Source: Chitinophaga pinensis (lineage in GTDB: Bacteria; Bacteroidota; Bacteroidia; NS11-12g; UBA955). Taken from it: DNA of 49,472 nt. The position numbers and the translations under genes are program-made. The notes under the pieces were generated by a model. That model did no database searches. It saw only the letters and a list, made by a program, of their open reading frames with translations, and had not been told where the DNA came from. The stretch spans positions 1 through 49,472 of the forward strand of contig CAMBBZ010000002.1 in assembly GCA_945863965.1 (NCBI GenBank). Direction: 5' to 3'. Positions 13,272-28,480 of the stretch are shown one piece after another (position 1 is the first letter of the stretch; each line of letters starts with the position of its first letter).

Positions 13272-13890
13272 TTCGCATTAATTCGTTGGTGCTATTAATA
13301 TCAAATTTGCGGAAAATATTTTTTTTGTGGGTTTCAAAAGTATAGACGCTAATATGCAATGTATTGGCACTATCTTTAGCTCCCGCGCCTGTTAAAATCA
13401 TACCCATAACTTCTAATTCTCTTTTGGTAAGATTGGCTTTAGCTTCAAGAACCATTTCCATATTCCGTTTTAACTTTTCGTCGGATGGAAATGGCGGATG
13501 GCAAACAAAATTTGAATTATTATCTAATAAGACACTGACTAAAACACTTAAGGGTACCTCTTTTGAAAGACAGGCTTGAAAGCCAGATTTTTCTGCCTGG
13601 AAAACAAGGTATTTATCGACGTAAGAGGAAAATAAAATCCATCGATATTTTTTAAACTCAGGCACATTCAATAAAACATCTAACCCGTTTACATTATTGC
13701 CCAAATGCGCATCTAAAATAATGACATCGGGAGGAGAATCTGTATGCAAAAGGAACTCCATTAAACTTTTTGGCGTATCAAATAGCCCAACCAAAAATAT
13801 ATTTTCCAACTGGTCTAATATCAAGCGTAAACCTTCTAAGACGACCTGATGATCGTCACAAACAGCTACTTTTATGGACTTAGTTTTCAT
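13246..13890 (-). CDS. NarL/FixJ (LuxR)-family response regulator
   Basis: Receiver domain (IKVAVCDDHQVV...VIILDAHLG) plus a C-terminal LuxR HTH (LTKRELEVMGMILTGAGAKDSANTLHISVYTFETHKKNIFRKF). The start was chosen at MKTKS (13890); the ORF-track start at 13944 adds a non-receiver extension. Confidence 0.85.
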   Translation of the reverse strand: MKTKSIKVAVCDDHQVVLEGLRLILDQLENIFLVGLFDTPKSLMEFLLHTDSPPDVIILDAHLGNNVNGLDVLLNVPEFKKYRWILFSSYVDKYLVFQAEKSGFQACLSKEVPLSVLVSVLLDNNSNFVCHPPFPSDEKLKRNMEMVLEAKANLTKRELEVMGMILTGAGAKDSANTLHISVYTFETHKKNIFRKFDINSTNELMRIAIDYNIK

Positions 13891-13957
13891 ATGAATCTGA
13901 TTGTTCATCGAAGGTATATCAAATAAGGACCAAACACATACCAAGAATTAGGTATTC

Positions 13958-14014: not shown

Positions 14015-14039
14015 CTGACATATTTGTAGGATATGTCAG
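14015..14039 (+). promoter_or_regulatory. Perfect 9-bp inverted repeat that includes the start codon of the 617-aa gene
   Basis: ctgacatat (14015-14023), 7-nt loop, atatgtcag (14031-14039). The ATG at 14033 sits inside the right arm. Confidence 0.3.
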
Positions 14040-15886
14040 GTGCTCCAACAAATTTCGAAGAATTCCAAGAATGGGTTTCAGACCAACAAAGTGAAATAAA
14101 AAATTTAGTTAGTTCTTTCCGAAATGAAATCGACGAGGTTATACAAGAGATGAAGCGTGAAATCGACGATAAATTCGATAAGGTATCCGAAGAAATTTTG
14201 GTTGGCAAAACGGAAATAACCACTACTATTTCCAACTATCTAGATGAGATTAAAAGTGATAGAGAAGATTTCAAAGAGCGTATAAGCGAATATTTAAAGG
14301 AGGGGGAAACCAAACTTGAAAATATTGAATCATTATTCACGAAGAGTGAAGAAATACATGAAAATATTACCGAACAGCAAAAAGAAGTAACCCAGAAGCT
14401 TGAGGAAATCATAGACAATCAAAAAAACAGCGAAGAATTATTTAAAGAAATAGAGGCCCTTAAAGAAAACGCTGTAAATGAGAAGGAATTGATTGAAGGA
14501 ATTCATGAAAAAAGTAAAGAAATAGAACAAGAAATTCGTGAGTTATTTCAAGAGACCAAAACCCATGAGCAAGCTGCCGAGGATAGTTTACAAAAAACCA
14601 AAGAAATAGAATCGAAGAGTACCGACTTATTAGGAGAAATTACAGAAAAAGATAAATCCGCGGGTGAATTCCTTGATTCAATTGAGAAAAAAGAAAATGA
14701 ATCCCAAACCCGATTGGAGTCTATTGTCAATATTCAAGAAAAGTCAGAAGAACTGCTCGAATCTACCAGAGAGCATGAAAAAATCACGTCTAATTTATTG
14801 ACCTCTGTTGAGAAAATGGAAGATGAATGCGAAACGCGCTTAGGCGTTTTGAGGAAAATCGAAGAAGACGCCCACGACTCTTATGAGCATACCTTAAAAC
14901 ACGAAACCGACGCCCACGATCAGCTTACGGTTATCATTAACCACGAAACTGTAGCCAATACTAATTTGAATCTCACGATTCAACACGAGCACGACTGTAT
15001 ACCGCCGCGCGACTTGATTATCAAATACGAACAAGAATTACTTACGTTACTTCAACAATCGCAAGCTCACGAAAAAGAAGCTTCTGAATCAAATGAAGCC
15101 GCAAATAAGTATGAAGCCGATGCGCAGCAATCTGCACAATTATCGAACCAATATGAAGCGGAGGCACAGCAATCTGCGCAAGCCGCTAACCAATATGAAT
15201 CTGCAGCGCAGCAATCTGCGCAAGCCGCTAACCAATACGAAGGGGATGCGCTACAATCTGCCGAACAAGCAAAATCTAATGCCGACATCGTAGCTGAAAT
15301 TAAATCGTTCGCAGAATCTACTAAAACCCAAATCGACGATTATCTCGAACAAATAATTGCCCAAAGTAACAGCGCAAATCAATATATAGGCGACCTATCC
15401 GAAATCCTCAAGGAAGCCAATACCTATATATCAGAATTAGACACTATTATCGGCGCTGCAAATGACTCATTAAAAGAGGCCACAGACATTCTAACAGAAT
15501 TGCATACAATAATAGATAAAATCAATACTATAACAACCAGTATTAGTGATTGTCAAACACAATGTGAATCTAGCCAGATAAAATGTGAAACCATCGAAAA
15601 TGAGCTTACGGCAATTAAAACTGAACTGACCGAGCTAAAATCGACAACGGAAACAGAAACGGACAAATTTATATCCGATTTAGAACAAAAAATAGATGAT
15701 TTCCTAGGTCAATTAAATACACAGGAGAAAATGGTAGCCGAATTGGTAGACGGCATAACCAATAATTCTAAAGATGCGGAAGATGCAAAAAACAAGGCAG
15801 AAGATCATGAAGATGATGCCAAAAAAGCAGCAGATGATGCCGATAGATACGCCGATTTGGCTAAAGCCGCTTATGATCGATTGTAA
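14033..15886 (+). CDS. Hyper-acidic, predicted all-helical coiled-coil protein of 617 aa with no recognisable family
   Basis: Long ORF with coherent Glu/Lys/Ile/Thr-rich composition and no signal peptide. It has internal 14-aa tandem repeats and an Ala/Asp-rich C-terminal tail. Confidence 0.75.
   Translation: MSGAPTNFEEFQEWVSDQQSEIKNLVSSFRNEIDEVIQEMKREIDDKFDKVSEEILVGKTEITTTISNYLDEIKSDREDFKERISEYLKEGETKLENIESLFTKSEEIHENITEQQKEVTQKLEEIIDNQKNSEELFKEIEALKENAVNEKELIEGIHEKSKEIEQEIRELFQETKTHEQAAEDSLQKTKEIESKSTDLLGEITEKDKSAGEFLDSIEKKENESQTRLESIVNIQEKSEELLESTREHEKITSNLLTSVEKMEDECETRLGVLRKIEEDAHDSYEHTLKHETDAHDQLTVIINHETVANTNLNLTIQHEHDCIPPRDLIIKYEQELLTLLQQSQAHEKEASESNEAANKYEADAQQSAQLSNQYEAEAQQSAQAANQYESAAQQSAQAANQYEGDALQSAEQAKSNADIVAEIKSFAESTKTQIDDYLEQIIAQSNSANQYIGDLSEILKEANTYISELDTIIGAANDSLKEATDILTELHTIIDKINTITTSISDCQTQCESSQIKCETIENELTAIKTELTELKSTTETETDKFISDLEQKIDDFLGQLNTQEKMVAELVDGITNNSKDAEDAKNKAEDHEDDAKKAADDADRYADLAKAAYDRL
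15101..15268 (+). repeat. Four tandem 42-bp (14-aa) coding repeats
   Basis: The units are ANKYEADAQQSAQL, SNQYEAEAQQSAQA, ANQYESAAQQSAQA and ANQYEGDALQSAEQ. Units 2 and 3 are nearly identical at the DNA level. Confidence 0.9.
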
Positions 15887-15905: not shown

Positions 15906-17405
15906 TTAGATGCCACTAATTTTAAAACCTGCGATAAAAAATATTCCTTTTGCCGCTTCTGCACCAAAAGTAGCTTCCAATCCTATCATAATACTTTGAT
16001 CGACGTACATGAACCTGCCACCGAAGCTCATACCATAATCCCAAATTGCATATTCAGTAGCCTCCCCAAATGTAGCCGGTTCGATATACTTCTCATTCGT
16101 TTGCTGGGCTCCAAAACCTATGGTTAGTCCCCCTTGAAAAGACCCATCAATAGGAAACGACATACAATTATGAACTTGAATCTTTTTTAAATCATTGTCT
16201 GATGAAAAATAACGCATTCCGAACATATTACCCAAATGACGGGAATCTAGAACTCCCATTTCAATACCTAAGGGCAAACTACCTGCAATAAAAATGCCTT
16301 CTCTTTTATTCTCTATCTTCCACAACAATTCTCGAGATTTCCTCTCGCTTTCCGCAATGGCTGCTTCTTCTTGTTCCTTTTTTACCCTTGCCTGCCGCTC
16401 AAGTTCAATTCGTTGTGCCTCTTCAACACGACGTTTTTCTTCTGCCGCTTTAATGCGTTCCCAGTTCGCATTCGTTTCGGATACCTTTTTTGAAAATGCC
16501 TCTTTATTGGGTGGAAAGTACCCTAGTTGAGTCTCAATGGAATTAAGGTAATCGGTTATACGGGTAATAAAAAAGGTCGAATATGAATACTCCCTCCAAA
16601 GATTTTCCATTTGTGTAAGATGTTGTCTTACACTTTTAAAATCCGCGCGGGCATGGCTGATAAGAATATAATTGTCATTTGACCTATAAAATTCGGCCGC
16701 ACTAGCTTTTATTTTAACTTGGCTATATGTTTGTTGCAAGCTAACCAAGGAATTTACCAATATTTCTCCTTGCTTTTGCGTTTTTGCATCGATAAAATTA
16801 TTCGCTTTTAAACGATTTAGCGCTTGAATAAAAATATCAGAATCTACTCTTGAATAGTCTAGTGAGCCCACACATGTAGATAGTGTTGAAACGATCTCAT
16901 TTGCCGCGTCTTTTTCTCGAATTCGTTTTTCTTCCTTTATCTGGCCATTGGTTTTGGTTATTACGGATATTTCATTATTTGATAATAAAGTTATATCCAT
17001 AGTAGCAATATCAGGGTCTATCGAAAGAAATTGATTATATCGATATGATTTACCATTAGGTAGTTTTAACTCTAACGTTGCATCACCTGAATAAATAGAA
17101 TGACTCTGATAACTACCCGCTTCAGAAGCAGATACAATAAAATCACTCGTAAGCCTTTTATCATCTACCTCAACAATGAGAATGACTTTTGCTGAAATAT
17201 TTACGTTAATGCTTACTTCATGCTGTTTATAGGTTTTTACTGGTGCCGCTGCCGGCTTGTATGATTTTATTGGAGCTTTCTTAACTTTAGGTTGCGACCC
17301 AGGCAGGTTAATTGCTTGGGCTTTAAGGTAAATAGGGGTAAAAAAAAGAAAAACAGAACACACGACAATGAAACGGCAGAAAAATAAAACTTTTTTTGTT
17401 ACCAT
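15906..17405 (-). CDS. Secreted protein of 499 aa with a charged ER/K-type helix and a Gly/aromatic beta-rich C-terminal domain
   Basis: Signal peptide (…FTPIYLKAQA). Central segment EEKRRVEEAQRIELERQARVKKEQEEAAIAESERK. The last ~130 aa alternate Gly, aromatic and hydrophobic residues (possible membrane anchor or beta-barrel). Confidence 0.65.
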   Translation of the reverse strand: MVTKKVLFFCRFIVVCSVFLFFTPIYLKAQAINLPGSQPKVKKAPIKSYKPAAAPVKTYKQHEVSINVNISAKVILIVEVDDKRLTSDFIVSASEAGSYQSHSIYSGDATLELKLPNGKSYRYNQFLSIDPDIATMDITLLSNNEISVITKTNGQIKEEKRIREKDAANEIVSTLSTCVGSLDYSRVDSDIFIQALNRLKANNFIDAKTQKQGEILVNSLVSLQQTYSQVKIKASAAEFYRSNDNYILISHARADFKSVRQHLTQMENLWREYSYSTFFITRITDYLNSIETQLGYFPPNKEAFSKKVSETNANWERIKAAEEKRRVEEAQRIELERQARVKKEQEEAAIAESERKSRELLWKIENKREGIFIAGSLPLGIEMGVLDSRHLGNMFGMRYFSSDNDLKKIQVHNCMSFPIDGSFQGGLTIGFGAQQTNEKYIEPATFGEATEYAIWDYGMSFGGRFMYVDQSIMIGLEATFGAEAAKGIFFIAGFKISGI

Positions 17406-17615: not shown

Positions 17616-18527
17616 TCAAAATAAATCGCTGAATGCATCGGGATCAGCCATGAGAACAAGTAGAATGGAAAACAAAAAGATTCCGAATAAAAAACCCCAA
17701 AAACCAAAGACAGAATCCATGAAAAGGGTTCCTTCAATTAAAAGAACTAAGCCAACCAATCCCATTATTCCCAAATAAATAGAGGATAGCACGATATTGA
17801 TCATATATATCCCATTGTCATCTTCCCCAAAAATTAACGTGGTAATTAACAATGCGGCTGCTAATAGAAGTGAAACGTCGGTAAAAAGTGTAAGAGAAGG
17901 TACTCCGAAATTAGTTAATCCAAGGATTAATATAGCTCCCACAAAAAATAACAACAATCCAAATTGAACAATTGATAATCGTATATCCCCATCATAATAA
18001 CCCGTACTTTTTTCTAATAGCAGCGTTCGAAAACGGCTAAGTGCATTTGATCTTTTTACATTTAGATCTTTATATTTTGTATTTAGTTTTGCAAGAGGTC
18101 CAATTGATTTTTTATTTGAATGCGACTTTTTAGTTATATCCTTTATCAGAGTATGTTTCAGGCCCAATAACGTGTTATTATCTAATGACTTTACACTTAA
18201 ATTAGGGACCGATTGAATTAGCCATTCATTGATAGAATTTCTACTATCGAGAACGGTATCCGGTATTAAATTGAATTCTCGTAGGGACCGATTCTCATTA
18301 TTGAGTTTGTTTGACGCACTGATTTTAGCATAATTAAAACCCTTCGAAGGTTTTGATTTACTACAATCCGATGTTGATGAATGTTTTTGATATGTGTGAG
18401 TTACATCCCAATTACCCCGATTCCCTAAAATTCGATGCTTTTGTGGTAAACCACAAGAAAAAATCCCCAAGGTGATCATTATAAGCAAAACCCCGATTCG
18501 ATTGAACTTGTTTTTTCTCATAAACAC
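17616..18527 (-). CDS. Membrane protein of 303 aa: lipoprotein-like signal, polar Ser/Asn/Lys-rich region, four C-terminal TM helices
   Basis: N-terminus RIGVLLIMITLGIFSCG. C-terminal hydrophobic segments IVQFGLLLFFVGAILILGL, VSLLLAAALLITTLIF, IVLSSIYLGIMGLVGLVLLI and GFWGFLFGIFLFSILLVLM. Confidence 0.65.
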   Translation of the reverse strand: MFMRKNKFNRIGVLLIMITLGIFSCGLPQKHRILGNRGNWDVTHTYQKHSSTSDCSKSKPSKGFNYAKISASNKLNNENRSLREFNLIPDTVLDSRNSINEWLIQSVPNLSVKSLDNNTLLGLKHTLIKDITKKSHSNKKSIGPLAKLNTKYKDLNVKRSNALSRFRTLLLEKSTGYYDGDIRLSIVQFGLLLFFVGAILILGLTNFGVPSLTLFTDVSLLLAAALLITTLIFGEDDNGIYMINIVLSSIYLGIMGLVGLVLLIEGTLFMDSVFGFWGFLFGIFLFSILLVLMADPDAFSDLF

Positions 18528-18633: not shown

Positions 18634-19512
18634 ATGTCAAAATCACGAATTGAATATCTCGAAATTCTAAATTTAGATGAATCTGCCACAATTAATGAAA
18701 TAGAGGCTCGGTTTAATGAATTGTACAGTGATTTTCAGATCCGATTGACTAATGCGCCCACCCCTAATTTGAAGAAACTTTATCAAAAAAACTTACAAGA
18801 ATTAGAGGAGACTTATGCCTTACTAACGAATCAGAAAGTCACAAGCCAACCCAAAACCGATTTGCCTTCATCAAAACCTGTCCAAAATTTTCAAAACGGG
18901 CCTAGCGAATCGAGCAACAAAAGTGATGCAAGTGATAACAAACGCCAGAGTAACCCTCAAGTCATTGCGGGAAGAGGTGCTAGAACTCCCATCCCAAATA
19001 ACAACAACGATAAGGTTCTGAAATCTTCAGGAATTTCTTTTAATATATTCGTCATTACCGTAGTTGTCGCCGTGGCCGGAATTGCGCTGCTCACAACACT
19101 TTACTTTGACGGGAAGAACGAAGTCGTTGAAATGCAAAAAGAAGCGGCAAAGGACCAAGATTTTCTAAAATTCAAAGACATCTTCAAAAATGGCAAGTTT
19201 AAGGTTGAGAATCGCACGAACCAAACCGTTACCGTTTTGATAACCCACATTACCTTCTTTGACAATCAAGGACAACTTAAAGAGTATAAATTTCTTGGGA
19301 CCGATGGAAATCCGAAATCGGTTCAAGTGGTTATCGAGCCTGGTAAAAATGTGAGCATTAACCAGTATGACGGACCAGTGAAATGGGATGGGTCGGTGGT
19401 ATCATATGCTATGCTAGTTTACGGAAACGGAAATTCAAGCCAGCCATCGGCTGTTTACAGTGGGATTTGGCTCCACGAATGGCCTGAAAATAAACTTGTA
19501 ATTACCCTTTAA
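18634..19512 (+). CDS. Single-pass membrane protein with an N-terminal J-domain-like helical module lacking HPD and a beta-rich C-terminal domain
   Basis: Residues 1-67 follow the J-domain helix I-III pattern (YLEILNLDESATINEIEARFNELY … LKKLYQKNLQELEETYALL), but the loop reads IRLTNAPTPN. A polar linker follows, then a TM helix (FNIFVITVVVAVAGIALLTTLYF) and a C-domain of about 130 aa. Confidence 0.7.
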   Translation: MSKSRIEYLEILNLDESATINEIEARFNELYSDFQIRLTNAPTPNLKKLYQKNLQELEETYALLTNQKVTSQPKTDLPSSKPVQNFQNGPSESSNKSDASDNKRQSNPQVIAGRGARTPIPNNNNDKVLKSSGISFNIFVITVVVAVAGIALLTTLYFDGKNEVVEMQKEAAKDQDFLKFKDIFKNGKFKVENRTNQTVTVLITHITFFDNQGQLKEYKFLGTDGNPKSVQVVIEPGKNVSINQYDGPVKWDGSVVSYAMLVYGNGNSSQPSAVYSGIWLHEWPENKLVITL

Positions 19513-19517
19513 TTATC

Positions 19518-21308
19518 ATGAGAATCAAAAACTTGGAACATGGCACATTTGCCAAAATCCAACAAGAGGTTGTAACAACTATTGCAGATGTTGGATTACC
19601 CGCATTGTTTGTCAACACCTTAGGGGATATTGAAAAAATCACCCGTCAAAATGAATTCCTTAATCAAGACATACGCATATGGATAATTGGTGAGTTACCC
19701 GATATTGACTGGGTAAACGTTGCTCATTGCGACCTTTCAAAAGATAAAGAGCTCATCGAGAAGGGCGAAATTGTTCATCATGATTTTCAGATCAATAACC
19801 AACATATTAATCTGTCTGCATCCAAAATTGAACATTATCAACCGGGTTTAATCAGTAGTATTCAACCCTTATTTACCGTAATATGCATATATAAACCCGA
19901 CGTCGATTCTTCTTTTGAAACGCTAAGATTATTAGCCGATGACCTACCGTGGGTTCATTTGATTGATTTTGACCATTGTTTGCCCGCATCATTAAAAAAA
20001 GAGTTATCACAAAAACTCATTCAGTTTGAGTACACGGAGATTACAGATAATATCGAAGTTCCAAACTTAGTGATGCTATTCAATCAAAATTCGCAAGAAA
20101 AACAAAGTATACACACGAATTATTTGAGCATCAATCAACTAAAAAAGACGGTAAAAACGATATCATTAATTGCAGGAAAAGAGCTAAACAACATCATTTC
20201 CAAAAAAGCAATTACCCAACAAAAGATATTACAAATCCCTGATTCGCGAAACAGCAATGTCAACGATTGCATTGCTAAATTAAAACAAATAATTCAACAA
20301 TATTCAGTAAATTACGAGAAAAGCACCATTACATCAACCGAATTATTTATTCAGTCTGAATCACATAGGGGCATCAAACAGACACTTTCCGAATTGGAAA
20401 ACCAAACCATTATTTTTAAAGAAACGCCCAAAACGAAAAACATAGAACTCTCTTTAGAAACAAAATTCGAGAACCAATTAAAAGGCGATTTACACCAAAA
20501 AATATCAAAAAAATGTGCCACTGATGTCCAAATTTTCATTGACACCATCAATGTCTTAGAGAAAGAAATCGAACAATTGTTAGATTCACAAGGCATTGTA
20601 TTCCAGAGAACCAATATGAAATATATCACCCAAAATGATATTGATTATTTCTTAAGTCAATGCTTTAATCGGAAAATCGATTATAGCGGCACCGCGCCAA
20701 ATAAAGGATTGTACGAATACTTCTCGGCAGCACGAAAGTTTCAAATGGTATTTTTCATGATGGCTTCGATATTTGGGGTTTCTGGATTGATAAAAAAATA
20801 TCAATTTGTATCCATACCCCTTTCCATTGTTCTTCTTGGATACGGAATCATAAATGTGTCGAAATCTGTTGCAAAAGAACGGGTCGAAAACGAAGAAAAG
20901 GAGACTAAATCAGCAATGGAAGCTATTGAGCGTTGGTTAAAAGATATCGGTAGCGACATGTCGAGAACTTGGACTAAAATTTTATTAGATACGTTTAAGT
21001 CGCAATTGAACATCCTCAATAGCGAGACTGAAACAGCGTTGAAAATTAATTTAACACAGCGAAATACTGAAACAGAAGATGAACGCAGAAAACAACAGAA
21101 AAGTCTTCAAACTTTTGAACTTAGCGAAAGAAAAATCGAAAACGTGCACCGCAGTGTCCAAACTATGGATCGCAATATTCAACGATTGCTATCAGATTCA
21201 AGAACTGGTTACAACCAGATATTGCGCGCTGAAAGAGATGGATCAAGAGATACAACTTCCGCAACAGAACGTAGGATTAGCAGATCTGAAAGACGATCAG
21301 ATACCTAG
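19518..21308 (+). CDS. Protein of 596 aa with no recognisable family: alpha/beta N-domain, helical middle, TM hairpin, C-terminal coiled coil and Arg/Ser/Asp/Glu tail
   Basis: Starts 5 nt after the previous stop. The hydrophobic hairpin MVFFMMASIFGVSGLIKKYQFVSIPLSIVLLGYGIINV spans nt 20745-20858. No P-loop (GxxxxGK[ST]) found. Confidence 0.8.
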   Translation: MRIKNLEHGTFAKIQQEVVTTIADVGLPALFVNTLGDIEKITRQNEFLNQDIRIWIIGELPDIDWVNVAHCDLSKDKELIEKGEIVHHDFQINNQHINLSASKIEHYQPGLISSIQPLFTVICIYKPDVDSSFETLRLLADDLPWVHLIDFDHCLPASLKKELSQKLIQFEYTEITDNIEVPNLVMLFNQNSQEKQSIHTNYLSINQLKKTVKTISLIAGKELNNIISKKAITQQKILQIPDSRNSNVNDCIAKLKQIIQQYSVNYEKSTITSTELFIQSESHRGIKQTLSELENQTIIFKETPKTKNIELSLETKFENQLKGDLHQKISKKCATDVQIFIDTINVLEKEIEQLLDSQGIVFQRTNMKYITQNDIDYFLSQCFNRKIDYSGTAPNKGLYEYFSAARKFQMVFFMMASIFGVSGLIKKYQFVSIPLSIVLLGYGIINVSKSVAKERVENEEKETKSAMEAIERWLKDIGSDMSRTWTKILLDTFKSQLNILNSETETALKINLTQRNTETEDERRKQQKSLQTFELSERKIENVHRSVQTMDRNIQRLLSDSRTGYNQILRAERDGSRDTTSATERRISRSERRSDT

Positions 21309-21331
21309 TTTCAGATCGATTTAACATATTT

Positions 21332-22858
21332 ATGAGAGTTGGTATAGATTTAGGTACTACCTATTCACTTATTACAGTTTTAGGCCATGATGGAAGACCT
21401 TATTTGATCCCCGATTCAGATAATCCAGAACTTTTTGCTACGCCGTCTGTGCTCAGTATTGCTGAAGGTTCCGCATTTGTAGGACATATAGTTGAAACAT
21501 TAATAGAGCATAATCCAGATTTATCTGTTCAGCGCTTTTTCAAGAGAAGTTTTGGAAAAACAAAACCTTTGTATTTCGATAAGAATGGAGCTCCATGGTA
21601 TCCTGAAGCGATGGCTGCATTGGTCTTAAAAAAGCTGAAATATGATGCTGAAATGTATTCAAATGAAAAAGTTGACGGCGCCGTAATCACAGTCCCCGCT
21701 CACTTTGACGATGCCCAGCGCAAGTGCGTTTTAAACGCCGCTGCATTAGCCGATATTCCAGTATTAGGTCTTGTCGAAGAACCCGTAGCCGCTGCGTTGC
21801 ACTACACCGTATCTCAAAAAGTATACGATAAAGTTGTATTAGTCTATGATTTAGGTGGGGGCACTTTTGATTCTACCTTATTGAGCATCGATGAAAATGG
21901 CACTTATGTGCTATCAAAAGAAGGTATTTCAGATTTAGGAGGTAAGGAGTTTGATGAGCAAATTGCCGCATATATAATCGAACAATTTGAAAAACTTAGC
22001 GGCAATAGCCTCAGCCTAAACGCTATTACACTTCTTCAATTGCGTAAACTTTCTGAGGAAGTAAAAATTGAGCTTTCCATTCCCATGCTTCCGTCAATCA
22101 AAAAAACTGTTTTTTTAGACAATCAAATGATTGAGATTGTATTTAGTCGCAAAATATTCGAAAACAGCATCGCAAATGCCATTGATAGTACTATAGACGC
22201 GACCCGTAAATGCATTCAAGGCGCTCATATGAAGCTAGAGGATGTAAATACAATACTCTTAGTCGGTGGCTCCTCAATGATTCCTCTTATCAGAGAAAAG
22301 CTGCGCACTATTTTCTCCAACTCCGATCAGAATATTATATTTCACGAACCCATGAAAGCAGTAGCTTTCGGGGCAAGTATTTATGCTGCACAAATTGCGG
22401 GAGACGCATCTATATACAATATCCCACCGGAATTCATGGGAATAACTGGATATAACATCGGTATAAAAACATACAACAACGATACAAAAAACGAAGAAAT
22501 CGATACTATAATTAGAAAAAATCTTCCTCTTCCGGTGAAGGCAACACGGACATATTATACAAGTTCTAACGAACAAAACAACATACGTTTACAAGTGGTG
22601 CAATTCAACGAAAAAGGAACTGATATTCATGCCATTGGAACGTTGAATATAGGTCCTATAAGTAACCCTAAGGCCAATTATCCGATAGAAATAACCTTAG
22701 AAAATACGGAAGATGGAATTATTCAAATTACGGCCTATGATCCGAATACAGGAATTGAAATAGAGCAAACATTCGGTTCAGAAGATGGTGAAGATAATTA
22801 CCTAACCAAACAAAAGCGACTAGTCGATAAAACCATAATTAACAACCTGCAGAAATAA
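21332..22858 (+). CDS. Hsp70-family ATPase paralogue, 508 aa, without the helical lid
   Basis: Motifs GIDLGTTYS, ITVPAHFDDAQRK, LVEEPVAAALHY, VYDLGGGTFD and LLVGGSSMIPLI. About 140 aa follow the nucleotide-binding domain, which fits a substrate-binding beta domain alone. There is no lid and no EEVD-type tail. Confidence 0.9.
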   Translation: MRVGIDLGTTYSLITVLGHDGRPYLIPDSDNPELFATPSVLSIAEGSAFVGHIVETLIEHNPDLSVQRFFKRSFGKTKPLYFDKNGAPWYPEAMAALVLKKLKYDAEMYSNEKVDGAVITVPAHFDDAQRKCVLNAAALADIPVLGLVEEPVAAALHYTVSQKVYDKVVLVYDLGGGTFDSTLLSIDENGTYVLSKEGISDLGGKEFDEQIAAYIIEQFEKLSGNSLSLNAITLLQLRKLSEEVKIELSIPMLPSIKKTVFLDNQMIEIVFSRKIFENSIANAIDSTIDATRKCIQGAHMKLEDVNTILLVGGSSMIPLIREKLRTIFSNSDQNIIFHEPMKAVAFGASIYAAQIAGDASIYNIPPEFMGITGYNIGIKTYNNDTKNEEIDTIIRKNLPLPVKATRTYYTSSNEQNNIRLQVVQFNEKGTDIHAIGTLNIGPISNPKANYPIEITLENTEDGIIQITAYDPNTGIEIEQTFGSEDGEDNYLTKQKRLVDKTIINNLQK

Positions 22859-22933: not shown

Positions 22934-23797
22934 ATGGAAAACAATGAATCCCTGATGGAAGAAGCTCAATCTAGACTAGAAGAACTAAATCGATTGACTG
23001 AAGTTGCCCAAGAGCGCTTCGATAATGAATCACAGGAGCTAGAAAACCTAAGAACGAACTTAAGTGCTGATTTCGAATCATTTGTTGAATCTAGCAAATC
23101 CTCACTTCAGGAAATCGAAGAATACAAATCGCAGGTACAAGAGGTACAATCCGAAATTGAACAAATGAAATCAGATGCGGAGGAATTAAAATCGCAAACT
23201 GAAAATTTCAGAATGGAAACCGAAGATTTTAGAAATGCGGCGGAGGAATTCAAATCTCAAAGCGAGGATTTACGAGACGAAACAAACACCCTCAAATCTG
23301 ACACCGAAACCCTGAAAAGCGAAACCGAACAGTTACGCACAGAAACGGAAGAATTAAAGACTGATACGTCCGAGTTGCGCAACGAAACCGAACAACTACG
23401 AAACGAAAGCGATACATTAACTCAGGAAATTCAAGGTTTACGCGATGAGAGCAATAAACTGATGGACGAAACGACGCAATTAAGAAATGAAACTGAAGAG
23501 CTCAAAAATATCAGTTTGGAATTGAAAAATGATATTGAGAATCTTAAATCCCTCTCAGAACAATTGAGAGATGATATTGAAAACTTAAGAACGGAAAGTG
23601 AGCAAAAAAATCGTGAGATTTCTGATTTTAGAGACGATTCTGATAGTTTAAATAAAGAAACTATCGATTTGCGAGACGATGCTCGGGAAAGTGCGGATGA
23701 TGCAAATTCATATGCCCGCGATGCTGAGAACCACGAACAACGTGCGGATAGTGCTGCCGACCGCGCAGAAGCAGCTGCTGCTAGAGTAGGGTTTTAA
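22934..23797 (+). CDS. Hyper-acidic heptad-repeat protein of 287 aa
   Basis: Long ORF with no signal peptide. Leu or Phe recurs every 7th residue from residue 78 to 246 (one exception, K225), and the same register extends towards both termini. My hand count is about 82 Asp+Glu versus about 36 Lys+Arg. Confidence 0.8.
   Translation: MENNESLMEEAQSRLEELNRLTEVAQERFDNESQELENLRTNLSADFESFVESSKSSLQEIEEYKSQVQEVQSEIEQMKSDAEELKSQTENFRMETEDFRNAAEEFKSQSEDLRDETNTLKSDTETLKSETEQLRTETEELKTDTSELRNETEQLRNESDTLTQEIQGLRDESNKLMDETTQLRNETEELKNISLELKNDIENLKSLSEQLRDDIENLRTESEQKNREISDFRDDSDSLNKETIDLRDDARESADDANSYARDAENHEQRADSAADRAEAAAARVGF
23156..23680 (+). repeat. Twenty-five consecutive 21-bp (heptad) coding repeat units
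   Basis: Units include TETLKSE, TEQLRTE, TEELKTD, TSELRNE, TEQLRNE, SDTLTQE, IQGLRDE and SNKLMDE. The consensus is [TSI]-x-x-[LF]-[KR]-x-[ED]. Confidence 0.85.
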
Positions 23798-23852: not shown

Positions 23853-25187
23853 ATGAAATTAATCAAAATCATCTCGGTTATTATCTTATTGAGTGCTAAA
23901 TTACCGGCAACCGCTCAAAGTATGACCGATAAGTGGGTAAAAACTGCATCAAGACAACTTAAGGCGACTATCTACCTGGATAGTATAAATGAAGACTATA
24001 CCTTTTTTGCCCAATCTAAACGCTCGAAGCTTTGGGGTTACGGACAATACACCGAAAAAAAAGCGATTTTATATATTCCAATTGGTTACCAAGAATTAAC
24101 GCCTATACAATCAGATGTATTTATGGCCAAGTACCAGAATGCCTATGGGTTAATTAAATCTAATTTCTCCGAAAATAACGCTATTTTAGTTCCATTTCTT
24201 TTCACTAGTTTTCTTTACGATGACCAATGTAAAGTTATGCAATCCGTGAAAATGAAAAATTCCCAAGGGAAATGGGGTATGTTCAACTTAAGAAACGGAA
24301 TGCTAATGGCGCCATTTTGGTTCGGAGTACCCGAAAATATTCCAAACGTATATTTACAACCAGACGACTCAATCAACATCGAACAAAAAGAACTATGGAA
24401 TCGCATACTTAATCAAAACAGCACCATTAAACTCTTGAATTTAAGTGGAGAACGACTTTTGCTTTTACATCCAGAATTGGATAAATTTTCTAAAATCACA
24501 GAAATCAATTTAAACGGTAATAATCTATCCCAAATACCCGATTGGTTTGACCAATTAAAATTAACATCACTCAATTTATTCGGAAACACCCACATAAGAT
24601 TTATACCACACACCATCAATCGGTTTCAAACTTTAAAAATATTGAAATTTGGTTGGCACACTTTGCCCGGAAGCTGGCCGGTTCGCAGTTGGTATGAAAC
24701 GTTGGAGTTTGACACCCTGCTTTTCGGAAGTCCTAGTATTACAGAAATTCACTGTAACCACTACTGCACAAGTCAGGAAAACCAAAATCACATTTTTACA
24801 TTCTTAAAGTCACTGCCTAATCTAAAACACATTCATTTTTATCGGGAATCTTCACTACCTCTCCCTTTAATACATACATGGGCATCAGCCGATTCCATTT
24901 CGACGGTCATTTTTGATGCTTTAATTACGGACACTAGCGCAACATCTATTGTCGAAGATATCGGTAAATTGACCCACCTTAAACACGTCCAGTTTAGTGG
25001 TATCGACTCTTTGGATCTTAAACCGTTGCGTTCCTTAACCAATCCACGCTTTATTCAAATCAAATTTTATAAAAAAATAGAGGGAAATCGTTACGGTTTT
25101 CTGAGAGAATTCAGGTACGATAACACGATGGAAAACAAAACGCATCAAGATTTTATAGACGCCCTTGATAATTATTCCTTAAATTAG
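23853..25187 (+). CDS. Secreted protein with WG-type repeats followed by leucine-rich repeats
   Basis: Signal peptide (ILLSAKLPATAQS). KLWGY and GKWGMFNLRNG motifs sit in the N-terminal half. LRR units include LNLSGERLLLLHPELDKFSKITEINLNGNNLSQIPDWFDQLKLTSLNLFGN. Confidence 0.8.
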   Translation: MKLIKIISVIILLSAKLPATAQSMTDKWVKTASRQLKATIYLDSINEDYTFFAQSKRSKLWGYGQYTEKKAILYIPIGYQELTPIQSDVFMAKYQNAYGLIKSNFSENNAILVPFLFTSFLYDDQCKVMQSVKMKNSQGKWGMFNLRNGMLMAPFWFGVPENIPNVYLQPDDSINIEQKELWNRILNQNSTIKLLNLSGERLLLLHPELDKFSKITEINLNGNNLSQIPDWFDQLKLTSLNLFGNTHIRFIPHTINRFQTLKILKFGWHTLPGSWPVRSWYETLEFDTLLFGSPSITEIHCNHYCTSQENQNHIFTFLKSLPNLKHIHFYRESSLPLPLIHTWASADSISTVIFDALITDTSATSIVEDIGKLTHLKHVQFSGIDSLDLKPLRSLTNPRFIQIKFYKKIEGNRYGFLREFRYDNTMENKTHQDFIDALDNYSLN

Positions 25188-25251: not shown

Positions 25252-25818
25252 ATGGCTACAAAAATCAGATTACAAAGACAAGGTAGAAAGAAAAGACCTT
25301 TCTATCACATTGTGGTGGCGGATTCGCGTGCTCCGAGGGATGGCCGTTTCATTGAAAAAATTGGAACCTACAACCCCATCACCAATCCTGCAACCATCGA
25401 ACTAGATGTGGACAAAGCAACCCAATGGTTATTAAAGGGAGCTGAACCCACAGACACCGCCGCGGCGATTCTATCGTACAAGGGCGCTAAGTACAAAAAA
25501 CACCTCCAAATCGGTGTTAACAAAGGAGCCATTACCCAAGAAGTAGCAGATCAAAAATTTGCCCTTTGGATGGCCGAAAAAGACAACAAAGTGCAATCTA
25601 AAGTAGACGTTTTAACCAAAGCACGCGAAGATCAACGCACTGCCGCATTTAAAGCCGAAGAAGCTAAGAAAGAGGCCATCGCTGCTAAGATTCAAGATCG
25701 TTTGATCGCTGAAGCTGCTGCTAATGCCCCTGTCGTTGAAGCTACTGAAGAAGTAACCGAAGCACCCGCTGATGAAGCCGGTACCGAAGAAGCTCCTGCT
25801 GAAGAAAGCGCTGAATAA
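25252..25818 (+). CDS. rpsP: 30S ribosomal protein S16 with a long Ala/Glu/Lys-rich C-terminal extension
   Basis: The N-terminal ~85 aa ([42 protein letters not shown]) are canonical S16. About 100 extra low-complexity residues follow. Confidence 0.95.
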
Positions 25819-26342
25819 TGCGCAAACTCCCTCCACCAGTGCACATCATTGGAAGCATCACTTCCAAACACGGGTACAAGGGAACCATACACATTCGCTG
25901 GGAAGATGAAGATCTTATCCCAGAAGAAGGGGATTTCCTTTTTGTCGTTATCGACCAAAAGGGAGTCCCCTTTCGAATTTTAAAAATGAATGGAACCGCA
26001 GAGCTCGTTGACCTAGAATTCATTGATTCCGATGAAAAAGCCAAAGAAATTATTGGCAAACCCGTCGGACTCGATCAATCTCTTATCCCTGAAAATCACT
26101 TCCATACCGCCTTAGAACACTTTAGCCTACAAGATTCTAGAAGCTCGTTCACAGGCGTCATTACCAAAATGCTCGAATACCCCGGACAGCTCATGCTGCA
26201 CGTGTCTTGCAATAATCGCGAATATTTAATTCCCTATGTGGAAGAATGGATTCGGGAAACCAATATTAAAACCCGAACTTTGATTATGGATTTGCCCGAA
26301 GGATTGATTGACTCGGACACCCAGAGTACCCATGAGGATTGA
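25818..26342 (+). CDS. rimM: 16S rRNA processing protein RimM
   Basis: Sits between rpsP and trmD. It has the GSITSKHGYKGTI motif and a PRC-barrel-sized C-terminus. Its start overlaps the rpsP stop (TAATG). Confidence 0.85.
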   Translation: MRKLPPPVHIIGSITSKHGYKGTIHIRWEDEDLIPEEGDFLFVVIDQKGVPFRILKMNGTAELVDLEFIDSDEKAKEIIGKPVGLDQSLIPENHFHTALEHFSLQDSRSSFTGVITKMLEYPGQLMLHVSCNNREYLIPYVEEWIRETNIKTRTLIMDLPEGLIDSDTQSTHED

Positions 26343-27015
26343 TATCATCAGCGCCGTTCCCGAATTGCTCGTTGGTCCCTTAAACCACAGCATTCCTAAA
26401 AGAGCCCAAGATAAAGGCCTTTTGCAACTACATATTCATAACCTACACGAATATGGTCTCGGCAAATACAAACAAATAGACGATTATCCCTTTGGAGGCG
26501 GTGCCGGTATGGTGCTAAAACCAGAGCCCCTTGCTGCCGTTATAGAAATGCTGCAAGCCCAAAGATCCTACCAACATATCATTTATACCAGTCCCGATGG
26601 ACTCCATCTGAACCAATCGACTGCTAATCAGCTGTCTTTATTGGAGAATATCATCATCATTTGCGGACATTACAAAGGCATTGACCATCGCATACGCGAT
26701 GAATATGTAACCCTAGAAATTTCACTAGGAGATTTCGTATTGAGCGGCGGAGAAATTGCAGCTTGTGCTATTACCGATGCAATCGTGCGTTTATTGCCCG
26801 GCGTAATTGGCAACGAAGAAAGTGCCCTCAACGACTCCTTCCAAGATCAATTATTGGCACCCCCCCTCTATACCCGTCCTGAAGTTTTTCACGACAGGCG
26901 CGTGCCGGAAATATTGCTTAGCGGCAATCACAGTAAAATTGAAAACTGGCGATTAGAGCAATCTATCGAACGTACCCAACTATTAAGACCCGACTTACTC
27001 AATCCAAACGAATGA
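26332..27015 (+). CDS. trmD: tRNA (guanine37-N1)-methyltransferase
   Basis: MRIDIISAVPELL…DDYPFGGGAGMVL…CGHYKGIDHR…SLGDFVLSGGE. I prefer the Met at 26332 over 26308. Confidence 0.93.
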   Translation: MRIDIISAVPELLVGPLNHSIPKRAQDKGLLQLHIHNLHEYGLGKYKQIDDYPFGGGAGMVLKPEPLAAVIEMLQAQRSYQHIIYTSPDGLHLNQSTANQLSLLENIIIICGHYKGIDHRIRDEYVTLEISLGDFVLSGGEIAACAITDAIVRLLPGVIGNEESALNDSFQDQLLAPPLYTRPEVFHDRRVPEILLSGNHSKIENWRLEQSIERTQLLRPDLLNPNE

Positions 27016-27779
27016 ATCTAACCCTTACACGTCCCCTCGTAGTTTTCGATATAGAAACCACCGGCATCAACACCCAGCGCGATCGTATCGTTGAAATTAG
27101 TATGCTCAAAGCGTTTCCCAATGGCGACGAAGAATTGCGCACCTATCGGATCAATCCCACCATTCCCATCCCAAAAGACGCCAGTCAGATACACGGAATT
27201 TATGATACCGACGTTGCCGATAAACCCACCTTTAAAGAACTGGCCAAAGAAATTGAACACTTCGTACATTTATGCGATTTCGGGGGCTTCAATTCCAATA
27301 AGTTCGACTTCCCATTATTAGTTGAAGAGTTTTACAGGGCCGAAATTGAAATTGATATCGACAACCGAAAGTTCATCGATGTTCAACGCATTTTTCACAC
27401 GATGGAACCCCGGAATTTATCGGCCGCCTATCAATTTTACTGCAATCAAACTCTGGAAGATGCGCATTCTGCAGAAGCCGATACCATTGCCACTTGGAAT
27501 ATCCTCAAAGCCCAATTGGATCGATATCCCCAATTACCTAAAGATGTGAAAGGCCTCCACGAATTTTCGGGACAAGGCAATAATGTGGATTTAGCCGGAA
27601 GATTGGTTTACGATAAGAATAAAGTCGCGGTTTTCAATTTCGGAAAACACCGCGGAAAGCCTGTAGAATGGGTCCTCAAGCAAGAACCTAGCTACTACAA
27701 CTGGATGATGGACGGCGATTTTCCCCAGCAAACCAAACGGGTACTCACCCGCATACGTTTACAAATGATGAAACACTAA
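27012..27779 (+). CDS. DEDD-family 3'-5' exonuclease (DnaQ/epsilon-like)
   Basis: ExoI VVFDIETTG, ExoII FNSNKFDFPLL and ExoIII HSAEADT. The start overlaps the trmD stop (ATGA). Confidence 0.8.
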   Translation: MNLTLTRPLVVFDIETTGINTQRDRIVEISMLKAFPNGDEELRTYRINPTIPIPKDASQIHGIYDTDVADKPTFKELAKEIEHFVHLCDFGGFNSNKFDFPLLVEEFYRAEIEIDIDNRKFIDVQRIFHTMEPRNLSAAYQFYCNQTLEDAHSAEADTIATWNILKAQLDRYPQLPKDVKGLHEFSGQGNNVDLAGRLVYDKNKVAVFNFGKHRGKPVEWVLKQEPSYYNWMMDGDFPQQTKRVLTRIRLQMMKH

Positions 27780-28480
27780 TGAAGCCCGCCCCCATTACCA
27801 TTATAGAAGAAACCAACGATTGGGTTTGTGTATACAAACCCCCTTATGTACCTAGCATGCCCGAAAGAGGCAAATACACCGCGCAACCCGTAATTGAGTG
27901 GGCCCAAAATCGATACGAAACCGCTATTTTATGCCACCGGATTGACCGCGAAACATCGGGGATAATGATTTTGGCGAAAACCCCTGAAGCCCATCGGCAT
28001 ATTTCAATGCAGTTCGAGCATCGCCAAATTGAAAAACGCTATCATGCCCTTGTAGATGGACCTGTAAACTTCGATAATTTCGAGGTAGATTTACCCATCA
28101 ATACCAACGATTTAAACCATATCCGCATCGATAGGAAAAATGGGAAACAAGCCCTCACCCGTTTTCATACATTGCACGAATACAAACACTTTAGTTTAAT
28201 TGAGTGTATGCCCAAAACCGGTCGTTTGCACCAGATTCGGGTGCATCTGGCCTCGCAAAATGCCAAAATTGCCGGAGATATTTTATACGGAAGTCAAATC
28301 CCCATGCTCAGCAAAATCAAACGCAAGCTTTCCGGAGAAGACAGACCCCTTATCGAGCGGTTTGCATTGCATGCCTATCAATTGGGATTCGCCGATCTTA
28401 ATGGCGATATGAAAACCATCACCGCACCCTATGCCAAAGATTTTGATGTATTTGTAAAATTGCTCAATAAATACGATTAG
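27779..28480 (+). CDS. RluA-family pseudouridine synthase
   Basis: Catalytic motif HRIDRETSGIMILAK plus the KTGRLHQIRVHL motif. There is no S4 domain. The start overlaps the previous stop (TAATG). Confidence 0.85.
   Translation: MKPAPITIIEETNDWVCVYKPPYVPSMPERGKYTAQPVIEWAQNRYETAILCHRIDRETSGIMILAKTPEAHRHISMQFEHRQIEKRYHALVDGPVNFDNFEVDLPINTNDLNHIRIDRKNGKQALTRFHTLHEYKHFSLIECMPKTGRLHQIRVHLASQNAKIAGDILYGSQIPMLSKIKRKLSGEDRPLIERFALHAYQLGFADLNGDMKTITAPYAKDFDVFVKLLNKYD

Follow-up and report, generated by a model that had tools for sequence, protein, structure and literature searches.

A window of 49,472 nt of the Chitinophaga pinensis assembly GCA_945863965.1 (contig CAMBBZ010000002.1, positions 1-49,472 of the forward strand), meaning the whole stretch of DNA that was analysed, carries a compact gene cluster from which we infer, tentatively and with a confidence somewhat short of even, a dedicated inner-membrane Hsp70 machine that would be insulated from DnaK and would act on a GTPase-dead dynamin-like remodeller. 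Its three genes, given the working names P1, P2 and P3, encode a J-like membrane protein of 292 aa (18634..19512, + strand), a putative dynamin-like protein of 596 aa without a GTP site (19518..21308, +) and a lid-less Hsp70 of 508 aa (21332..22858, +). They follow one another with spacers of only 5 nt and 23 nt, just as the original prediction had reported for these tightly packed open reading frames (ORFs). That prediction had seen here a candidate for an undescribed membrane-tethered Hsp70 module, a view now supported by the recurrent linkage of the genes and by the lack of any Pfam, NCBIfam or PADLOC family for P1 and P2, which may nonetheless already have been described in the literature.

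The linkage was assessed in loci (labelled L001, L002 and so on) gathered in three ways, through relatives of P2, through relatives of P1 and through the Hsp70 alone, with all ORFs scored by hidden Markov models (HMMs) of the three families. In 18 of the 18 non-redundant loci that have room for it, the gene immediately upstream of the lid-less Hsp70 is P2-like; these loci come from Bacteroidia, Sphingobacteriia, Flavobacteriia, Cytophagia and Vicinamibacteria, three of them picked by the Hsp70 alone, and the stop codon of P2 overlaps the start codon of the Hsp70 in L002, L008, L011, L031 and L032. J-like genes, numbering from one to about seven per locus, are adjacent to the P2-Hsp70 pair or within 10 kb of it, mostly upstream, downstream in L022, L024 and L030, divergent in L008 and 4 kb off in L001. 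Because this arrangement recurs in every related locus examined, the linkage is far beyond chance, and the check that had been proposed earlier, whether homologues of the 596-aa and 292-aa proteins accompany an Hsp70 paralogue in other genomes, is answered in the affirmative. The conserved gene set is carried by Bacteroidota and Acidobacteriota, no relatives of P1 or P2 from outside these two phyla were found among the named matches, and the system is likely to be vertically inherited.

The N-terminal region of P1 (aa 1-68, 18634..18837, + strand) is, judged by profile comparison, a true homologue of J-domains. A profile of these 68 residues, built from 17 diverse relatives, retrieved about 35 J-domain structures as its top matches in the PDB and little else, the best being DNAJA3 (E 8.7e-6, full length), and hhalign aligned the domain to seven canonical J-domains with a probability of 92% (E 5e-7); the Pfam DnaJ model (PF00226) gave no match to P1 at E<=0.1. 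The AlphaFold2 (AF2) model of P1, with a predicted local distance difference test (pLDDT) value of 76, places helix I at aa 5-11, a long helix II at aa 20-40 and helix III at aa 44-65, joined by the turn A41-P42-T43, followed by disorder (aa 76-132), a transmembrane (TM) or long helix (aa 136-179) and a beta domain (aa 186-292). A Kyte-Doolittle scan puts the single TM helix at aa 138-156 (19045..19101, +; score 2.72), and the C-terminal beta-sandwich is predicted to lie beyond the membrane, outside the cytoplasm. The earlier description of this protein, with J-domain-like helices I-III, the sequence IRLTNAPTPN in place of the HPD loop, and then a linker, one TM helix and a beta-rich domain, is borne out in each of these parts. 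Foldseek searches with P1 returned only non-significant beta-sandwich matches (cytolysin domain 4, VHL; E>=2e-3).

What replaces HPD is itself under strong constraint. The P1 family comprises 71 clusters, and in the 41 members that were aligned no HPD motif was found in the loop between helices II and III, where TNAPT stands; in P1 the R-L-T-N-A-P-T motif, read from the translation, occupies this turn (18742..18762, +). D33, R37-L38-T39-N40-A41-P42-T43, L46-K47-K48, Y50-Q51-K52-N53 and E56 are invariant or conserved in at least 90% of these members and together form the best conserved part of P1, and RLTNAPT-type motifs also occur on paralogues in Tamlana, Cecembia, Neptunitalea and Vicinamibacteria. 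From this degree of conservation we conclude that HPD was exchanged for a selected motif and did not decay.

All P1-like proteins share the layout of J-like domain, TM helix and C-terminal domain, and in Flavobacteriia and Cytophagia they form arrays of paralogues. In Tamlana, Cecembia and Neptunitalea two to six extra genes near the P2-Hsp70 pair encode proteins with one or two J-like domains bearing R-[LI]-T-N-A-P-T, then a single TM helix and finally a C-terminal domain that differs from protein to protein (FGE-sulfatase, BatD, TonB_C, WG_beta_rep or Fib_succ_major). Vicinamibacteria carry the J-like domain on FHA proteins, and there the TM segment and beta-sandwich of P1 form a separate small gene straight after the Hsp70. 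We also observed that many J-like proteins of L013 (Tamlana flava), L015 (Cecembia lonarensis) and L032 (Neptunitalea) carry a tandem pair of J-like domains, the first with the TNAPT motif and the second far more divergent, and that L013 and L015 have several FGE-sulfatase (GldJ/GldK-like) paralogues in series.

P3 has a nucleotide-binding domain (NBD, about aa 1-358), an altered linker, the beta part of the substrate-binding domain (SBD-beta, about aa 366-486) and a 22-aa tail. All five Hsp70 ATPase motifs that had been pointed out earlier are present, Pfam HSP70 (PF00012) is matched with E 1e-79 over profile positions 105-500 of 599, and the PDB matches (BiP, Hsc70, DnaK) span both NBD and SBD-beta. 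Against the NCBIfam DnaK model the match covers only positions 5-490 of 625 and scores 274 bits (cut-off 648), and P3 also falls far short of the cut-offs of the other equivalog models; the DnaK equivalogs TIGR02350 and NF001413 give 272-274 bits (cut-offs 648-823), and the DnaK and HscA equivalog models taken together 242-274 bits (cut-offs 620-1019), so that P3 is an Hsp70 but no orthologue of DnaK or HscA. Its alignment to E. coli DnaK stops at DnaK residue 506 and leaves only 22 aa; SBD-beta is thus present and lid helices B-E are absent, in agreement with the earlier claim that the protein has room for the former domain but not for the helical lid. P3 belongs to a distinct subfamily, large and uniform, whose members are 504-511 aa long, fall into at least 119 clusters and share about 50% identity; its carriers include Tamlana flava, Cecembia lonarensis, Lunatimonas salinarum, Lishizhenia, Neptunitalea lumnitzerae and Vicinamibacteria.

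Conservation of single residues was followed in P3 and 118 relatives aligned to E. coli DnaK taken from NC_000913.3. D8, P143, D148, R151, E171, D194, T199 and D201 (DnaK numbering) are invariant in 118-119 subfamily members, the hydrophobic pocket of SBD-beta is conservatively kept, and the interdomain linker VLLLDV of DnaK is changed to a conserved P-x-E-[LF]-[RK]-G-[VI]. MAFFT and hmmalign put a hydrophobic residue at the position of DnaK K70. HMMER pairs the invariant K71-R72-x-x-G75 of P3 with A-K-R-L-I-G of BiP, this lysine is invariant in 118 of 118 sequences, and E. coli HscC carries a matching LFKRAMG stretch, aligned by eye with the K-R pair of P3. A dead P3 ATPase was therefore considered and rejected as an artefact of gap placement, since the register that suggests it also misaligns LFKRAMG of HscC, and we read the catalytic lysine of P3 as conserved in the form of the invariant K-R pair.

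The two proteins appear to have changed on both faces of the surface through which a J-domain normally engages Hsp70. In the DnaK-DnaJ crystal structure, H33 of DnaJ bonds the L391 carbonyl of DnaK, P34 packs on P419, D35 bonds R167 and Q378, and the basic residues R22, K26, R27, K48 and K51 face E206, D211, E217 and D477 (Mayer 2021, PMC8215388). In the Hsp70 subfamily G takes the place of R167 in 113 of 119 members and E that of N170 in 116 of 119; Q378 is H or Y, position 206 is S or T, position 217 is Y or F, and the D211 loop is deleted together with the GrpE-signature region. The J-like domain in turn has E24, N28 and E29 at the basic positions of helix II, plus the conserved acidic D33. 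Retained are P419 and the acidic position 477 (E477) on the Hsp70 side and P42 and K47/K48 on the J-like side, and by alignment the contacts corresponding to P34-P419 and K48-D477 could persist in the P1/P3 pair. Both faces of the canonical interface thus seem to have been altered together. As contacts are lost on both sides and possible ones kept on both, P1 and P3 look like a co-evolved private J/Hsp70 pair, which would have no cross-talk to DnaJ and DnaK. A "charge swap" of J-like R37 opposite Hsp70 E149 was also considered; it occurs only in the hmmsearch register and is absent from the hhalign and model registers, and it is not relied on here.

The middle protein P2, to which the original prediction could give no motif name, was identified through its fold as a bacterial dynamin-like protein. 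Its AF2 model, built from a 7-sequence alignment (pLDDT 82, low at the hairpin), shows a degenerate G domain, a helical stalk, a membrane hairpin and a long C-terminal helix; the hydrophobic hairpin and the long C-terminal coiled coil that had been noticed before correspond to aa 404-447 (20727..20858, +), resembling the "paddle" of dynamins, and to a C-terminal helix of 145 residues. The Ras-like alpha/beta domain (aa 51-190, 19668..20087, +) spans only about 140 aa and has the order b1-a1-b2-b3-b4-a3-b5-a4-b6-a5. In Foldseek searches of the PDB, dynamin-family proteins make up 13 of the top 16 matches to P2, with full-length alignments, led by C. jejuni DLP1/2 (5oxf/5owv; E 6e-8) and including Nostoc BDLP (2j69), IniA, OPA1, MxA, MxB, Mgm1 and Drp1. 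The N-terminal alpha/beta domain alone matches Ras, Rab and G-alpha proteins, with a template-modelling score (TM-score) of about 0.4 to small GTPases.

A word-based search yielded just 7 relatives of P2, and an exhaustive profile search was needed to reach the family of 295 clusters at 50% identity. In two P2 alignments conservation within this family is highest along the hairpin, and P2 has no match in Pfam (Dynamin_N included), NCBIfam or PADLOC. Neither the G1 P-loop nor the G4 NKxD motif is conserved: a G....GK[ST] string was found in 1 of 154 family sequences (member P0280), at a non-homologous position away from the beta1-alpha1 turn, and was dismissed. At the place of the P-loop after beta-1 the P2 of the window reads GELPDIDW, and after beta-5 it reads DHCLP. 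According to its predicted structure, P2 is a dynamin-like protein, a pseudo-GTPase, of a family without nucleotide-binding motifs.

Given these properties, the cytoplasmic J-like domains of one or several single-pass proteins would bring the lid-less Hsp70 to the membrane and set off its ATPase by way of a private, rewired interface that neither needs nor accepts J-proteins of the HPD type. The Hsp70 would then bind and remodel P2, acting on its assembly, its disassembly or a switch between open and closed forms, so that ATP hydrolysis by Hsp70 could stand in for GTP hydrolysis in membrane remodelling or repair of the dynamin type. The variable domains past the TM helix (beta-sandwich, FGE-sulfatase/GldK-like, TonB_C, BatD) may tell the machine where or when to act on the envelope, and an exchange factor might be unneeded, as for HscA and HscC. 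The window agrees with the earlier remark that no grpE, dnaJ or clpB lies nearby, as Pfam scans of its larger ORFs found no DnaJ, GrpE or ClpB. In many lineages the Hsp70 probably also works on acidic coiled-coil proteins with a ...RxGF tail.

These coiled-coil proteins are candidates for a fourth component. P4 (287 aa, 22934..23797, +), a coiled coil with 29% D+E and the conserved C-terminal tail ...HEQRADSAADRAEAAAARVGF, is the fourth ORF on the + strand, starting 75 nt past P3, and is likely the fourth operon gene in the clade of the window; its orthologues stand directly downstream of the Hsp70 in L001, L002, L005 and L018, which represent four clades. A 617-aa acidic coiled-coil protein (14033..15886, +) with 11-residue repeats and a weaker copy of the C-terminal motif has orthologues in L001 and L017 and is possibly a paralogous partner of the system. 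In 12 loci an HMM of the motif matches acidic coiled-coil proteins, 250-760 aa long, at their very C-terminal end, with the consensus ...DAExHExRAxxAADRAEAAAxR[IV]G(G)F. Such proteins are a frequent, not a universal, part of the system. The repeats of the 617-aa protein stand in tandem at about aa 340-420 (AQQSAQAANQYE...) and resemble those of apolipoproteins and other proteins that bind lipid surfaces; the protein has a weak ApoLp-III match (E 1e-3), and in Vicinamibacteria proteins encoded close to the system (L014, L031) have similarly faint apolipoprotein matches. As a separate observation, in L009 (7974-13794) and L026 (4260-11924) P1-like genes with no Hsp70 or dynamin-like pair nearby are followed by genes for a 494-aa protein, a TonB_C protein and an acidic coiled-coil protein of 740-760 aa that ends in the same conserved tail as P4, which may reflect a second, Hsp70-independent use of the J-like protein or a P2-Hsp70 pair elsewhere in the genome.

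Several points weigh against the proposed machine. Physical contact among P1, P2 and P3 is putative, and two of the registers used above depend on the aligner: the residues equivalent to HPD are A-P-T with hhalign and in the AF2 model, Q-I-R with hmmsearch, and the placement of the catalytic lysine likewise varies. The global TM-scores of P2 to dynamins are low, about 0.2, which can be ascribed to the long, hinged and flexible build of dynamin-type proteins. Because the P2 profile reached no dynamin among the PDB sequences, the relation stands at the level of the fold only. P1-like genes occur without the P2/Hsp70 pair in the flank examined in L009, L023, L025 and L026, and the acidic coiled-coil proteins were not found in L013, L020, L022, L024 and L030-32. 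A role in membrane repair, finally, is suggested by analogy with bacterial dynamin-like proteins, of which IniA and DynA act in membrane repair, and with HSP70B-CDJ2-VIPP1.

In its logic, the nearest characterised relative is HscC with DjlB and DjlC, a specialised Hsp70 paralogue with membrane-anchored dedicated J-proteins that is described as most likely acting on membrane proteins and is predicted to be independent of GrpE (Mayer 2021, PMC8215388). P3 shares the HscC-type indels listed in the same review, namely a deletion in lobe I, the deletion of the D211 loop, the absence of the GrpE-signature loop and five inserted residues in loop L1,2 of SBD-beta (Mayer 2021, PMC8215388). However, HscC (556 aa) keeps R167 and a shortened lid, both of which P3 lacks, and has no dynamin-like partner; P3 is 29% identical to HscC (142 bits) and 30% to DnaK (216 bits), hence closer to DnaK, and no HscC-specific model was among its NCBIfam matches. 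It had been stated earlier that the HscC/DjlB-DjlC pair keeps HPD, which does not hold. The J-domains of DjlB and DjlC in E. coli K-12 (NC_000913.3, 677415-681663; L029) read H-P-E, and the known HscC partners are thus already a slight variant of the canonical motif. P1 has in common with canonical J-domains (PF00226) the helix I-II-III arrangement, profile homology and the lysines of helix III, but it carries (T)NAPT for HPD, its helix II exceeds theirs by about 6 residues and is acidic where theirs is basic, and it falls below Pfam detection.

The bacterial dynamin-like proteins Nostoc BDLP, C. jejuni DLP1/DLP2, M. smegmatis IniA and B. subtilis DynA agree with P2 in fold and in domain order, with N-terminal helices, a Ras-like domain, a helical stalk, a membrane-inserting hairpin and a C-terminal helix, whereas P2 has no G1/G4 motifs, shows no similarity to them at the sequence level and is paired with an Hsp70 instead of a second dynamin. 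GTPase-fold proteins are also combined with HSP70 and a J-domain fusion, often close to the membrane, in the DO-GTPase/GAP1-N2 conflict systems (Kaur et al. 2020, eLife, PMC7159879). Those systems have other parts, with active TRAFAC GTPases bearing a Walker B glutamate, GAP1, FNIII, canonical DnaJ and GrpE, and occur in Actinobacteria and Firmicutes (PMC7159879). No DO-GTPase pair, GAP1, FNIII component or GrpE was found in the window or in the related loci. A search for an already characterised system, as had been advised, gave no match for P1 and P2 in Pfam, NCBIfam or PADLOC. Eukaryotes provide analogies of mechanism in Hsc70-auxilin uncoating at dynamin-cut vesicles, in HSP70B-CDJ2-VIPP1 and in the mitochondrial PAM motor (Pam18/Pam16/Tim44), where a membrane-recruited J or J-like protein directs Hsp70 onto a membrane-shaping polymer; these, however, use full-length Hsp70s, HPD-bearing activators and exchange factors, and the partners are non-homologous.

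Membrane remodelling, the handling of coiled-coil proteins and a role in conflict had been listed as possible functions, and this list stands as the right one. An unlikely yet substantial alternative is that the client is an acidic coiled-coil polymer (P4, the 617-aa protein and relatives), assembled or disassembled by the Hsp70 and its J-like adaptor, with P2 serving only as an anchor or scaffold, comparable to Tim44 for mitochondrial Hsp70. Chloroplast HSP70B-CDJ2, which assembles and disassembles VIPP1 oligomers, is a precedent. Tailed acidic coiled coils beside the system in 12 loci, even where P2 identity has fallen to 35%, their presence beside P1-like genes without a nearby Hsp70 (L009, L026), the position of P4 directly downstream of the Hsp70 in four clades, and the weak apolipophorin-III-like matches with 11-residue repeats all point in this direction. 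Yet P2 always accompanies the Hsp70, in many cases with translational coupling, while the coiled-coil gene was not found in L013, L020, L022, L024, L030 or L032; the likeness among the coiled coils is partly compositional, and the HMM of their motif was trained on 11 of its own matches.

A conflict or anti-phage system, in which the variable J-like-TM sensors would detect an invader at the envelope and the Hsp70 and the dynamin-like protein would seal or remodel the membrane and abort or delay infection, seems quite unlikely to us. DynA of Bacillus delays phage lysis, and a constant core with arrays of variable sensor-like paralogues (FGE-sulfatase/C-type-lectin-like and others) in Tamlana, Cecembia and Neptunitalea would suit such a role. 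GTPase-centred conflict systems moreover recruit HSP70, GrpE and DnaJ fusions (Kaur et al. 2020, PMC7159879). PADLOC-DB v2, on the other hand, gave no match for P1 or P2 and only a weak one for P3 (PDC-M61B, E 5e-4), the PADLOC matches of the coiled-coil proteins being compositional. No relatives were found on 2.9 million viral contigs, and a nuclease, TIR, protease or toxin effector occurs in none of the loci. In the window's clade the cluster keeps its synteny with rpsP-rimM-trmD and other core genes over a range of 35-100% identity, which is not the behaviour of a defence island, and the restriction of P1 and P2 relatives to two phyla among the named matches, with vertical inheritance looking likely, also speaks against this role.

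It is improbable, in our judgement, that the genes form an energy-coupling or export device like Sec63-BiP or the PAM motor, with the tethered Hsp70 pulling, inserting or energising single-pass proteins or an apparatus of the type IX secretion system (T9SS), gliding or TonB type. The C-terminal domains of the J-like proteins are typical parts of periplasmic machines (FGE-sulfatase, presumably as found in GldJ/GldK, TonB_C and BatD), the PAM motor too uses a J-like subunit without HPD, namely Pam16, and the organism has T9SS cargo. Against this, the Hsp70 lies on the cytoplasmic (cis) side and therefore cannot pull exported chains, translocon or T9SS/gliding genes are linked in no locus, and the system is also carried by Acidobacteriota, which are not known to have gliding or T9SS. 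That P1 bears a decayed J-domain and the three genes are mere neighbours, the Hsp70 working with ordinary DnaJ, is very hard to credit: HPD is held to be indispensable in all systems in which it was tested (Mayer 2021, PMC8215388) and the Pfam DnaJ model fails to recognise P1, but the conservation of the replacement motif across two phyla and many paralogues indicates strong selection and not decay, the Hsp70 is without R167 and the acidic patch that DnaJ needs, and the gene order is kept in all loci.

The cluster is set in the core chromosome, as judged from Pfam scans of the larger ORFs. Its neighbours include pgk, a class II aminoacyl-tRNA synthetase, uvrD/pcrA, lepA, dprA, yidC, an ATP synthase alpha/beta-family subunit, lptD and a T9SS cargo protein; comparison of gene order with related loci places rpsP-rimM-trmD after the cluster, and the stretch 25252-28480 was assigned via synteny alone. 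The nearest genome record is a metagenome-assembled genome of an uncultured freshwater member of Bacteroidia, with 88% identity in P1. A two-component system (9797-13944, - strand) adjoins the cluster and is also present in L001 (1-592) and L002 (1105-5020), thus in three clades; it consists of a 600-aa kinase (7TMR-DISM_7TM + HisKA_3 + HATPase_c), a 561-aa protein without assigned function and a 232-aa Response_reg+GerE regulator. HisKA_3 kinases with LuxR-type regulators form a class of two-component systems that governs envelope-stress regulons, for example LiaRS, and by this analogy the adjoining system may regulate the Hsp70 cluster, which we take only as a hint.

Upstream of P1 and divergent from it lie genes for a 499-aa protein (15906-17405, -) with an N-terminal hydrophobic segment and a charged central helix, kept in L001 (two copies), L005 and L017, and for a 303-aa protein (17616-18527, -) with about five TM segments, kept in L016; neither has a Pfam match, and both may belong to the same envelope module in the window's clade. 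Between P4 and rpsP a 444-aa protein (23853-25187, +) has a signal-like N-terminus and weak leucine-rich-repeat (LRR) matches resembling the LRRs of Xanthomonas XopL/XopAE, with conservation in L005 and L007 only. Further along (41188-45237, -) lies the gene of a surface protein of 1349 aa that combines GEVED, PKD and Ig-like domains with a Por_Secre_tail, which shows that the organism uses the T9SS.

The system ranks among the Hsp70/J-protein machines. In fold it is like J-domains and dynamins, but it lacks the HPD that defines the former and the GTP motifs of the latter. Three types of prokaryotic Hsp70 were recognised in a 2021 review (Mayer 2021, PMC8215388). Our results raise the possibility, which we rate as less likely than not, of a fourth prokaryotic class besides DnaK, HscA and HscC, one that would be defined by an HPD-independent TNAPT interface, would serve as the ATP motor of a GTP-free dynamin-like remodeller and would be steered by envelope-reading single-pass proteins; the three-type view of prokaryotic Hsp70s would then be incomplete. 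That the Hsp70 is without exception paired with a GTPase-dead dynamin-like protein suggests a chaperone ATPase as a possible energy source of a membrane machine of the dynamin type, for which there is, as far as could be checked, no bacterial record. With HPD and its receptor residues replaced on both sides, P1 and P3 represent a natural J/Hsp70 pair under strong conservation, in which the real requirements for triggering ATP hydrolysis by Hsp70 can be tested directly and which also provides engineering with a ready-made orthogonal chaperone pair. Since it is present in the cultured Cecembia lonarensis, Tamlana flava, Lunatimonas salinarum and Neptunitalea lumnitzerae, the system may be open to experiment.

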